Positions 491 through 43,410 of a DNA stretch of 64,000 nucleotides are shown here, piece after piece (the stretch's first letter is position 1; the number at the start of each line of letters is the position of its first letter). Source of the stretch: Octopus sinensis (lineage: Eukaryota). A program made the translations under genes and the position numbers. The DNA is taken from contig NC_043012.1 in assembly GCF_006345805.1 (NCBI RefSeq), positions 16,368,001-16,432,000 on the forward strand, written 5' to 3'. Below the pieces are notes generated by a model, which did no database searches, was not told the DNA's origin, and saw only the letters and a program-made list of their open reading frames with translations.

Positions 491-776
491 GGGTATATAG
501 CGTAGTGGTTATGAGCGCGAGCAACAAACCTCAAGATTCCGAGTTCGATTCCAGGCAGTGACATAAATAATAATAATAATAATAATAACAACAACAGCAA
601 CATCGAAAAATACCTTAGGAATGAGAACCCAGGTTCGAAATCTCCCCAAGACACTTGAAGACTGGAGAGGATATCAGCCGAAATGATGTGTTAACAACAA
701 ACAAGATGAGGACAGGACAAATATCCCTCAAATTTAAATAATGTACATAATTCCTCATCTCTTAAATATAGAACTG
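491..776 (+). mobile_element. tRNA-headed SINE with hammerhead-bearing tail (family H), copy 1, degenerate ribozyme core
   Basis: A-box-like TAGCGTAGTGG, B-box GAGTTCGATTCC, internal (AAT)n, then a tail matching 10425-10636 and 11531-11985. The core reads ACAC-TTGAAG-ACTG...CAGCC-GAAAT-GAT-GTGTT (deletion in CTGATGA). Confidence 0.8.
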
Positions 777-9672: not shown

Positions 9673-10337
9673 TATAAACCCGACCATCAGCTTAAAGCAG
9701 GCATGGGCAAGCTTTTTCGAGAAATGGGCCGCACTACTAAAAACGTCTTGGTAATATTTCGATGGACGTACCATTCAATCTTGAAGGCCGTACTTTTCCC
9801 ATAATGCATGCCAAAATGGTAATTATCATGTTAATTATACCATTGTACGACAGCATTACTTAATCTGTTAAACTACAGTTCGTTGCACCGCTGCACTAAT
9901 GCACCCCACGACATTGAAAATACTTGTCTTTATCCTGCGAGAATTGTAAACATTGCCAGTAACACTTTTTATAAAAGACGATTTTTCAGATGTTCGTCAT
10001 TTTTTTTCACATCAGATATCTCTTTACAGAATAAGAATCAAATATCTTTTAGTGGCCAATATGAAAAATTCCACCAACAGGAGATGCTGAACGAGAATAG
10101 CAGAAGCAGAAAATAATCAATTCTATTATTAGGTGGTTAATTGACTTCATTATTAGAATGACCGTGAAATTTAATTACGCAGTGAAAGGTAAGGCAATAA
10201 TTATGGACGATTTGTTTGTTTGTTTTTTATAATTTAATCCCACAAGCAATAAATATAATCTCTGCACTTCTCTTTCTTACGTCTTCAACGCAACACATTT
10301 ACAGCTTTGTAGAACTGGTCATTCAAAGAGTCTAAAA

Positions 10338-10459
10338 CAGTGGTTCTCAACCAATTTTTGCTTATGGCTCCTTATGACTCTAATTTTACTCGGGTGGACC
10401 CTCATAATTATTCCATGTTTAAAAAACCCCAAGATTCCAAGTTCGATTCTAGGCAGTGA

Positions 10460-10531
<72 letters not shown>

Positions 10532-10771
10532 CAACAACATAGAAAAATACCTTAGGAATGAGAACTCAGGTTCGAAATTTCCCCAAGACATCTGATGAAA
10601 CAAGATCAGGACAAATATCCGTCGAATGTAAATAATTAGCAACTGTATTTAAAAATTGTTGAAATATTTTGTGTTTCGTAGAAATAGAATCAATTTACTG
10701 CATATAAACTTTATCAACAAAATTTCATATGAAACCCCCAGGGTCATATGGGCCTCGGTTGAGAACCACTG
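10338..10771. mobile_element. hAT-superfamily MITE with 15-bp TIRs and 8-bp TSD, carrying a nested family-H SINE
   Basis: TIRs CAGTGGTTCTCAACC (10338-10352) and GGTTGAGAACCACTG (10757-10771); identical GTCTAAAA flanks at 10330-10337 and 10772-10779. A degenerate second copy lies at about 50665-50895. Confidence 0.9.
10425..10636 (+). mobile_element. Family-H SINE copy 2 (5'-truncated, 3' half of ribozyme deleted)
   Basis: AAGATTCCAAGTTCGATT...(AAT)n...CCCCAAGACATCTGATGAA joined directly to ACAAGATCAGGACAAATATCC. Confidence 0.8.
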
Positions 10772-11154
10772 GTCTAAAACAATGTCCCCCCCCCCAACTG
10801 TTTTGTAACTCATTTTAGCATCTTCACACCTTTTAGTGGGAGATATTTTATCAATGCTCACCCCACCTTATAGTTTTGCAAACGAAACAGGAGATTCCTT
10901 TTATCAGAAGCTAATGTTTCAGGGAAGTGTTACTATCGATATTATTTTTTTTATACCAACCCAACCAGGACATCCCTGTTTTTAGATATTTGCATGGATT
11001 ATTGATCCTCATATTAAATTTTCATGGCAAATGGAAGGACGTATTTAATGAAGTTGCACTCGACCTCTGTTCTCTGCTCATTGAAAAACAGAATGTCCTA
11101 TTTATATTTTAATGACAACAAACACTGATTTTTAAACGGTGTTCAACTCAATGG

Positions 11155-11365: not shown

Positions 11366-11582
11366 TAGAAGGGCTGAAAATGTAAGAATTGTACTTGGTT
11401 TACGTTTAAGTGCGTTGTTTCTGAAAATAAACATCATATCATCCCTCTGAACATCCAGCATCTTTGACAATTATTTGACTCATAGTGAGTGTAAATTTTT
11501 GTTAGACCTATAAACATATATACTCCTGTTTATTTACATTATTTATATTTGATGGATATTTGTCCTCATCTTGTTTGTTGTT

Positions 11583-11629
11583 AACACAACGTTTCGGCTG
11601 ATATACTCTCCAGCCTTCATCAGGTGTCT
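11583..11629 (-). ncRNA. Minimal type-I hammerhead ribozyme inside a SINE
   Basis: Reverse complement GACAC-CUGAUGA-A-GGCUG(GAGAGUAUAU)CAGCC-GAAAC-GUU-GUGUU: canonical core, 5-bp stems I and II, palindromic AACGUU in place of stem III. Confidence 0.85.
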
Positions 11630-11681
11630 TGGGGAGATTTCGAACCTGGGTTCTCATTCCTAAGGTATTTTTGCGATGTCA

Positions 11682-11900
11682 AGGCGGCGAGCTGGCAGAA
11701 TCGTGAGCACGCCAGGCGAAATGCTTAGCGGTGTTTCGTCTGCCGCTGCGTTCTGAGTTCACATTCCGCCGAGGTCGACTTTGCCTTTCATCCTTTCGAG
11801 GTCGATAAATTAAGTACCAGTTGAGTACTGGGGTCGATGCGATCGACTTACCCCTTACCCCAAAATTTCAGGCCTTGTGCCTATAGCAGAAAAGATCATT
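11682..11900 (+). mobile_element. SINE family B nested in the (ATT)n tract of a family-H SINE
   Basis: Full head-to-tail match, ending AGAAAAGATCATTATTATT. Confidence 0.9.
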
Positions 11901-12189
11901 ATTATTATTCAGGTCACTTCCTGGAATTGAACTTGGAATCTTGGGGTTAGTAGCCCGCGCTCTTAACCACTACGCCTTATGGCCCTGGTTACGTTTCCGC
12001 AACGCAAAACCTGCTCCTACTTGTTTGGATATGAACTCACCGGGAAGCATCTGACTGACCATACGAACTGTTCCGTAGGTTGCATACCGTCCTTCGCTTC
12101 CAGATTGTGAAAGCTTACCATAACGTTTAATCTAAATAGAGTGGAATTTTAAGGCTTTTAAACAGAATCTGTGTGTGGAAGAGAGTGCG

Positions 12190-12505
12190 TGTGAAGTCGC
12201 ATGGCGTAGTGGTTAGGCTCACGGACTTTCGGTCGTGAGTTCGATAGCCGGCGGCGCATTATGTCCTTGAACGAGAGACTTTATTTCAAGTTGCTCACTC
12301 ACCTCAATTGGCAAAAAGAAGTTGTACCTGTAATTCATTGGGTCAGCCTTGTCACATTCTCTGTCACACTGAATCTCACTGAGGAACTTCATTATGGTTT
12401 TGCATGCCTGTGGAGTACTCAGCCACTTGGACATTAACTTCACGTGCTTCCTGTTCCGTTAACCGGATCGACTGGAACACTCCTCGTCGTAACCGGCGGA
12501 ATGCC
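12190..12505 (+). mobile_element. SINE family C
   Basis: TGGCGTAGTGG A-box, GAGTTCGAT B-box, tail ...CTCGTCGTAACCGGCGG. Confidence 0.8.
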
Positions 12506-31515: not shown

Positions 31516-31887
31516 ATATGTGGACACAGGATGTCACGGAACGTGTACAACAAAAACATACGAAGCACGAGTACATGGAACATGAACTATTCTTTCGAAC
31601 AACGAAAGACACTAATGGAAAACGAAACAAACAACTTAAATAGTGACCCTTCATCAGTGTTTTTCTAGTCTGGTATTTCGAGCATTTAACAACAATATAC
31701 GCGTGTTAAATGCTCGAAATACGAGACTAGAAAAACAGGCCAACAACTGATGATGGTTCGTTCTTTGCGTTGTTCGTTTTGTTTTCCATTTGTGCCTTTC
31801 GTTGTCCGAAAGAATAGTTCATGTTCCATGTACTTGTGCTTCGTATTTTCGGTTGTACACGTTTCGTGACGTCCTGTGCCCACATAT
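31516..31887. repeat. Fold-back (inverted) repeat, ~175-bp arms, embedded in (TA)n
   Basis: ATATGTGGACACAGGATGTCACGGAACGTGTACAAC...GAGCATTTAACA versus TGTTAAATGCTC...GTTGTACACGTTTCGTGACGTCCTGTGCCCACATAT; ~12-nt spacer. Confidence 0.9.
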
Positions 31888-42293: not shown

Positions 42294-42469
42294 CTATTTA
42301 TAAATGTTCTGAAATCTTTCACATCCTTGGATTTTTATCTCATACTGTTTATATATATAATATGATATGTGTGGCAATTAGTCAGTTGCCATAATAAAAC
42401 TCAGAGTTTTGGAAGTCGAGGCGGAGCTATGAGAGTGACTGTTAAATAAAATATATAAAAAATATATAA

Positions 42470-43347: not shown

Positions 43348-43410
43348 TAATAACTGACGAGATGCCGGAGTAGACGTCCGCTCCGATATCCGAAACACTG
43401 AGTTTTATTA
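43348..43410 (+). ncRNA. Type-I hammerhead motif with long stem II
   Basis: UAAUAA-CUGACGA-GAUGCCGGAG(UAGACGUCCG)CUCCGAUAUC-C-GAAAC-ACUGA-GUU-UUAUUA; 6-bp stem I. Its 3' half recurs inverted at about 42365-42426. Confidence 0.75.

Follow-up and report, generated by a model that had tools for sequence, protein, structure and literature searches.

The question raised by this locus is how a tRNA-derived head and a hammerhead ribozyme come to lie in the same short repeat. The window considered here, a stretch of 64,000 nt from the genome of Octopus sinensis, holds three repeats that a preliminary description took for copies of a SINE. They were said to share a head with A and B boxes, an (AAT)n linker, and a tail borrowed from a Penelope-like element (PLE), and the hammerhead in the tail of one of them, it was suggested, might set the end of the RNA. 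The partner was correctly named, but the relationship was not: the three repeats are almost certainly pieces of the terminal repeat of a PLE.

Three copies of a composite repeat

All three repeats, built from head, linker and tail, are present where they had been placed (Table 1), but they are not equally complete. Both of the boxes ascribed to each head are found in copies 1 and 3, where the A box of copy 1 is in fact TAGCGTAGTGG and the B box of copy 3 GTTCAATTCC. In copy 2, whose first base corresponds to a point some 37 nt inside the head, the A box is missing and the B box alone is left. Similarly, the span 11531-11985, originally treated as a single unit, does contain the element, but about 217 of its 455 bases belong to a foreign SINE-like insert that had gone unmentioned.

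Table 1. Coordinates within the 64-kb window of the three copies and their parts. Boxes on the minus strand are given in the direction of reading.
Feature	Position	Strand	Remarks
Copy 1, whole	491-776	+	Head, linker and tail
Copy 1, head	491-566	+	A box 498-508, B box 543-552
Copy 1, linker	567-601	+	(AAT/AAC)n
Copy 1, tail	602-776	+	Ribozyme core broken; longer fixed end (TAGAACTG at 769-776)
Copy 2, whole	10425-10636	+	Partial head, linker and tail
Copy 2, head	10425-10464	+	3' half only; B box 10441-10450, no A box
Copy 2, linker	10465-10542	+	Long (AAT)n
Copy 2, tail	10543-10636	+	Ribozyme lacks stem II and its GAAA half, lost in a deletion of about 40 nt
Copy 3, whole	11530-11985	-	Head, interrupted linker and tail
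Copy 3, head	11909-11985	-	tRNA-derived, start of the pseudo-LTR; A box 11976-11967, B box 11932-11923
Copy 3, linker, 5' part	11898-11908	-	(AAT)n; remainder resumes at about 11680
Insert in copy 3 linker	11681-11897	+	Unrelated abundant SINE-like repeat in opposite orientation, foreign to the element; 18 other matches in the window
Copy 3, tail	11530-11679	-	5' coding end of the PLE ORF, ATG 11657-11655; shorter fixed end
Copy 3, minimal type I hammerhead	11583-11628	-	Pattern match; architecture as in the part of PMC4209133 drawn on here

Other sequence has been inserted repeatedly in the (AAT)n linker, not only in copy 3 but also at L021, L024, L026, L066 and L247. Copy 2 is itself nested in a small DNA-transposon-like element (window 10330-10779) with 15-bp terminal inverted repeats (10338-10352 and 10757-10771) and an 8-bp duplication, GTCTAAAA, on both sides. 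I presume this surrounding element to be hAT-like.

Head and tail belong to one unit. Among 30 head-first loci, 27 have a tail downstream of the head on the same strand and no more than 600 bp away (26 of 29 if the query's own locus is set aside), and the head stands in line with the tail in 36 of 56 tail-first loci. One might suppose instead that an ordinary SINE had by chance received the end of a Penelope element in its (AAT)n tail, since the linker is prone to insertions (copy 3, L021, L066, L247) and three of the 30 head-first loci have no tail. Had this been so, head and tail should mostly have occurred independently. Their linkage, and the constant position of the head 30 nt behind the stop of the ORF considered below, rule chance nesting out as nearly as such counts can. 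Nor are the units arranged head to tail in the ribozyme tandems that define non-LTR retrozymes: a second unit on the same strand, sought over 700 bp on the upstream side and 200 bp on the downstream side, was found in none of the 56 tail-first loci.

The element that carries the unit

One of the tails adjoins a fragment encoding GIY-YIG, through which the ORF was traced. In 28 of 30 GIY-first loci the head begins within 60 bp after the GIY-YIG end or ORF stop. Of 30 RT-first loci, 22 extend as far as the GIY end, and 20 of these show the order RT, GIY, head. At its other extreme the unit runs on into protein, the far end of the tail being continuous with the N-terminus of the ORF. The element thus reads ORF stop, about 30 nt, head, (AAT)n, and then the ORF start bearing the hammerhead. 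One locus, L193, preserves the partial tandem in full, with a GIY fragment followed by head, linker and tail, then by the ORF, and then by head, linker and tail once more, and the partial-tandem pseudo-LTR (pLTR) is seen as well in L162, L166, L183 and L187.

The single ORF encodes a reverse transcriptase (RT) with a C-terminal GIY-YIG domain, and one frame of 551 aa spans the two. The RT domain is recognized by Pfam (RVT_1, E = 5e-9), while the GIY-YIG assignment is based on motifs and homologs, the Pfam GIY-YIG family giving no match on the C-terminal piece or on L151. The sequences ILPADKGNA and VYSIPCSCGRLYKGET agree with the features given for Penelope/Poseidon elements (PMC8557442). That the tail is truly coding is indicated by the frame from its ATG, which aligns at 42% over 139 aa with a relative, P0003 (E = 8e-30), the stretch encoded by the ribozyme included, and by length variants between the ATG and the ORF, which preserve one frame in eight of nine copies. 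No splice-like joint appears among the joints listed, in contigs of unrecorded kind, and no T-rich tract is present in the pLTR. The bridge from GIY end to head is found also in contigs under four other organism labels (L153:3760-4300; runs X16, X17, X19 and X20), so the arrangement is not confined to the genome of Octopus sinensis.

The head, linker and tail are therefore the pLTR plus the first 55 or so codons of an RT and GIY-YIG element of the Penelope/Poseidon type. The inference that the partner is a PLE is borne out by the position of the head behind the GIY end and by the passage of the tail into the RT/GIY ORF; the proposed search for tails adjacent to such ORFs finds that the tail is the ORF start itself. 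An origin of the tail in the 3' UTR of a LINE is ruled out, as the tail codes for the N-terminus of the PLE protein. What finds no support is the idea of a SINE with a borrowed tail, given that the head is part of the autonomous element, that the tail is the beginning of its ORF, and that one majority sequence is common to short and ORF-linked units. This last comparison set 30 ORF-linked units against 68 others, a few of which include small pieces of the ORF body, and because the two majorities are identical, the sample holds no separate SINE lineage. The repeat does have the small-RNA-derived head with A and B boxes expected of a SINE. It forms no separate composite lineage, and its 3' end is not that of a LINE 3' UTR or a terminal simple repeat, the simple repeat being internal.

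Most of the copies are nonetheless short. The head or the tail was found in 9 of 100 random stretches of 10 kb and the ORF body of the same family in none (matches to the body at reference positions 848-873 were left out of the count, as artefacts of (AAT)n), from which I estimate some 24,000 loci (11,000-46,000) in the 2.72-Gb genome. This dominance might be explained by a true Penelope-mobilised SINE that budded from the pLTR, with Pol III transcribing its short copies, which would then be recopied in trans. The short copies carry the promoter boxes, and they are slightly less diverged than ORF-linked copies (head 7.9% vs 10.5%, tail 5.6% vs 7.6%), although the short set was chosen by similarity. 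Against such a lineage, no diagnostic bases separate short from ORF-linked units, ORF-bearing copies begin at the same place (L176/L177, L179 and L189 begin at the head), and in an anole element the template requires about 55 nt of ORF beyond the RT start (PMC11167929), sequence absent from the short copies. I consider the budded SINE rather improbable.

The octopus element resembles the known Penelope/Poseidon PLEs (the anole element PAc, PMC11167929; Penelope of D. virilis, PMC2377424; PMC8557442). The parts of these papers drawn on here describe a single ORF with RT and C-terminal GIY-YIG, a partial-tandem pLTR, an inverted 5' copy, a one-sided tail of 30-40 nt, and a hammerhead overlying the ORF start and dispensable for insertion. 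The octopus element differs from them in that its pLTR starts with a tRNA-derived A/B-box head and (AAT)n, where relatives have a T-rich tract, in that most copies begin at the head, and in that its ORF contains no TTTT. Non-coding derivatives of PLEs are known (bioRxiv 10.64898/2026.07.22.740005; PMC8557442). Among them, the animal non-LTR retrozymes (bioRxiv 10.64898/2026.07.22.740005) are likewise non-coding, hammerhead-bearing derivatives of the PLE pLTR, but they occur in tandem, with no tRNA head mentioned in the part of the preprint at hand, whereas the octopus repeat forms no short tandems.

The hammerhead and the 3' ends of the copies

The letters of the hammerhead in the 11.6-kb copy, on the same strand as the promoter, are as first described: stem I GACAC (11628-11624, GACAC/GTGTT), then CTGATGA (11623-11617) and an extra A, stem II GGCTG/CAGCC, and then GAAAC-GTT, with a predicted cut between 11588 and 11587. 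Of the three copies in the window, only copy 3 passes the ribozyme pattern. The motif is not canonical, however, since its helix III is loopless and Rfam does not recognize it as a hammerhead. Copy 3 and the family majority instead combine the CUGANGA/GAAA/NUH core with an extra base after A9, the pair G10.1-C11.1 and a palindromic, loopless helix III. Minimal metazoan PLE hammerheads, according to the part of PMC4209133 available here, similarly have an extra base between positions 9 and 10.1, G10.1-C11.1, and a palindromic 15.2-16.2 without loop 3. By these features the ribozyme is the known minimal PLE hammerhead and not a canonical type I. The motif itself is no different from theirs, and a tRNA-like head goes unmentioned in that part of the paper. 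The minimal hammerheads of Cervera and de la Pena are mostly single or in pairs on opposite strands, in truncated PLEs (PMC4209133).

Rfam searches with copy 3 and with L063 gave no hammerhead or tRNA match at E ≤ 10, and a search with the whole window gave only microsatellite-type matches among the 150 listed of 256. Neither for a monomer nor for a dimer of the ribozyme was the minimum-energy fold the active one (z = -1.2). The core is nevertheless present in the family majority, where its absence would have told against the family having a hammerhead at all. Of 98 units, 25 retain the motif intact, and since the peptide that it encodes is also conserved in P0003, the hammerhead is under some constraint. 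In 19 of the 98 units an in-frame deletion of three bases lies at the GTT-GTG junction, a change that would remove the cleavable triplet.

That cleavage by the ribozyme fixes the end of the retrotransposed RNA, as had been suggested, is a proposal that might draw on this constraint on motif and peptide. It is contradicted, for inserted copies, by the position of their ends: all 27 head-first copies with a tail reach at least 30 nt beyond the cut site (L001-L030, chosen by use of the whole tail and hence biased as to 3' ends, were left out of this count). Copies end at two other fixed sites, about 55-65 and about 95 nt past the cut and about 40 nt apart. Moreover, ribozyme mutants of the anole element still insert normally (PMC11167929). 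I give a ribozyme-set end very little chance. The hammerhead may have a role in processing of the mRNA for translation or turnover.

Inverted 5' ends, which it had been proposed to seek, are present, and head-to-head inversions are frequent: the inverted piece lies on the 5' side in 39 of 56 tail-first loci. Among 51 two-armed inserts, 45 have the longer 3' end on one arm and not on the other, where 25 would be expected, and this one-armed end corresponds to the one-sided tail of PLEs (PMC8557442). In the anole element the one-sided tail marks two internal RT start sites (PMC11167929). A search for target-site duplications at 22 long-ended units, made without a control, gave scattered matches of only 3-6 nt.

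The association of a Pol III-type promoter with a hammerhead is not new, since the SINE-like schistosome repeats SM-alpha and Sj-alpha have both, the one following the other (PMC6765202). The schistosome repeats, as described in the part of that paper used here, are tandem and released by cleavage, whereas the octopus unit is dispersed, lies within an autonomous element and is uncut at its end.

Two further motifs of this kind occur in the window. An unrelated hammerhead-like sequence (AATAA-CTGACGA ... GAAAC-ACTGA-GTT-TTATT) lies at 43349-43409 on the plus strand, with an inverted part at 42367-42425; of 100 random stretches, 4 contain homologs, which in two cases form inverted pairs. In addition, a head-to-head inverted pair (31543-31675 and 31720-31860, 82% alike) has a CTGATGA core in each arm and one homolog, in L249. 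It looks like another mirror insertion of the PLE type.

The 5' boundary and probable transcription from the head

If the 3' ends are fixed, so for the most part is the 5' end. The head start is intact in 29 tail-first loci, of which 24 end there and five run on into the ORF, whereas truncation within the ORF body, at 0.0022 per nt, would remove only about 5% of copies per 25 nt. Of 61 arms, with each mirror insert contributing two, 53 have their first base in the interval from -9 to +1. The seven distinct ORF-start loci with an intact head start divide between three that begin at the head and four that extend upstream into a tandem unit, the latter counting against the reading proposed next.

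I suggest that the short insertions are run-off copies of an RNA that starts at the A/B-box head and is likely made by Pol III. For the whole chain of steps I put the chances at slightly better than even. The RNA would begin at the head and read through the terminator-free ORF, and the element's protein would nick AT-rich DNA. Reverse transcription would then start inside the RNA, about 125 or about 165 nt into the ORF, as it does in vitro for the anole Poseidon element. A start at the site nearest the RNA 5' end would copy about 300 nt and run off to give a short copy, and a start at the downstream repeat would give longer, randomly truncated copies. The small palindrome GCCC-AC-GGGC that spans the 5' boundary could let cDNA ends snap back or pair, producing mirror insertions. 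Cutting by the hammerhead would need a dimer or a protein, and the template end would not be defined by it. By analogy with the single anole element, most of the short copies would be dead ends, since the stretch of ORF that follows the RT start site is missing from them.

Pol III is suggested in the first place by the thousands of copies that begin at a tRNA-derived promoter sequence. The family-majority boxes are perfect, TGGCGTAGTGG and GTTCGATTCC, and both remain intact while the tRNA stems have decayed. Aligned with 27 host tRNA sequences of nine classes, the head is closest to Arg(TCT) (z = 7.5). It is, to judge from these comparisons, tRNA-derived with A and B boxes, if weakly so by Rfam and by ARAGORN, which called none of 114 heads at -ps95, 17 at -ps85, and no tRNA in the whole window.

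A second indication comes from TTTT. The majority sequence of the 2273-nt ORF body has no TTTT (2.5-3.6 expected, p = 0.026-0.037), and no TTTT site is common to 15% of 119 aligned pieces of it. The comparison set consisted of 58 ORFs of at least 300 aa from 79 related metagenome loci; TTTT is present in 57 of the 58, in all 38 over 500 aa, and in 18 of 19 with similar T content. The A/B-box pattern was found in none of the 79 loci. Within 200 nt upstream of the relatives' hammerheads TTTT occurs at 25 of 28 sites (some of them near-duplicates), and the T-rich tract usual there is absent from the octopus element.

One may go further and suppose that an autonomous element captured a tRNA-type promoter, purged its 2.3-kb ORF of terminators, is transcribed end to end by Pol III, and leaves tens of thousands of SINE-like run-offs that mark the start site. 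This fuller account, drawn from the same comparisons, is possible but stands short of an even chance. The deficit in TTTT is modest, as GGGG is likewise absent from the ORF body and the nearest relative among the 79 loci (L344:2602-4745, about 2.1 kb, 47%) has no TTTT in its ORF, a T-rich 3' region and no tRNA head. Run-off from a Pol III start leaves the translation of an uncapped RNA unexplained. The one dissected PLE promoter, that of Penelope in D. virilis, is LINE-like and TATA-less (PMC2377424), which also counts against such a start.

In a different reading, a tRNA or SINE was captured but persists in the head only as a passive relic, transcription is by Pol II, and the 5' ends pile up either at a Pol II start or by fold-back at GCCC-AC-GGGC. 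Known PLE promoters do lie within the pLTR (PMC2377424; PMC8557442), bases -2 to -7 are retained at fold-back junctions, and the head resembles that of another abundant SINE (score 68) more closely than any of the 27 host tRNAs (60). Only 13 of 2299 body windows are predicted to hold a hairpin as stable as the one at the boundary (top 0.6%), and since the ORF also has a local hot spot where 6 of 23 copies are lost, its worst window, sequence can evidently cluster 5' ends. None of the equally stable hairpins in the ORF produces a comparable hard stop, however, and a passive head would account poorly for perfect boxes beside decayed stems, for the missing T-rich tract of most relatives' hammerheads, and for an ORF without TTTT. 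I regard the passive head as unlikely, and retain the run-off of an RNA begun at the head as the preferred explanation. The hot spot itself is a secondary site of 5' truncation in an AT-rich stretch (positions 1740-1765 of the ORF reference L196; 6 of 23 copies at risk).

A copy of the other tRNA-headed SINE-like family is present in the window at 12193-12300 (48 BLAST hits in 1.06 Mb). The head of its best copy is identical to the element head at 49 of 76 positions, mainly in the boxes, and the family is a possible donor of the head. Ohshima and Okada reportedly described in 1994 the octopus tRNA-derived SINEs OR1, OR2 and OK, said to originate from tRNA-Arg. These come from what is likely the same host group, and the element head also has Arg as its best host tRNA, a likeness by description only; the present repeat may be on record under a name of the OR1/OR2/OK type in Repbase, Dfam or SINEBase, or may be included in the repeat library of PMC13282606. 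No account of a PLE with a tRNA-derived pLTR head was found in the literature searched, which included the parts drawn on of the octopus repeat papers (PMC13282606, PMC8967140, PMC6962438, PMC8969392). The nearest parallel for the promoter is in the TRIMp3 elements Cassandra, Helenus and Ajax, which have a small-RNA-derived Pol III promoter inside the terminal repeat, proposed to originate by insertion of a SINE (PMC10886601). Those, in the part of the paper used here, belong to the non-autonomous LTR elements and have PBS, PPT and TSDs, whereas the octopus element is a protein-coding PLE.

PLE promoters are barely known, only one having been dissected. If the head is a working promoter, then Pol III would be driving a retroelement that encodes protein, which would be unusual, and the question would arise of how an uncapped RNA with a ribozyme in its first codons gets translated. 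A repeat that looks exactly like a SINE and yet is the by-product of an autonomous element bears on the annotation of SINE-rich octopus genomes and on the origins of SINEs. Finally, the thousands of copies log the 5' end of an RNA together with two RT start sites, and so would provide an in vivo test of the internal-initiation model.
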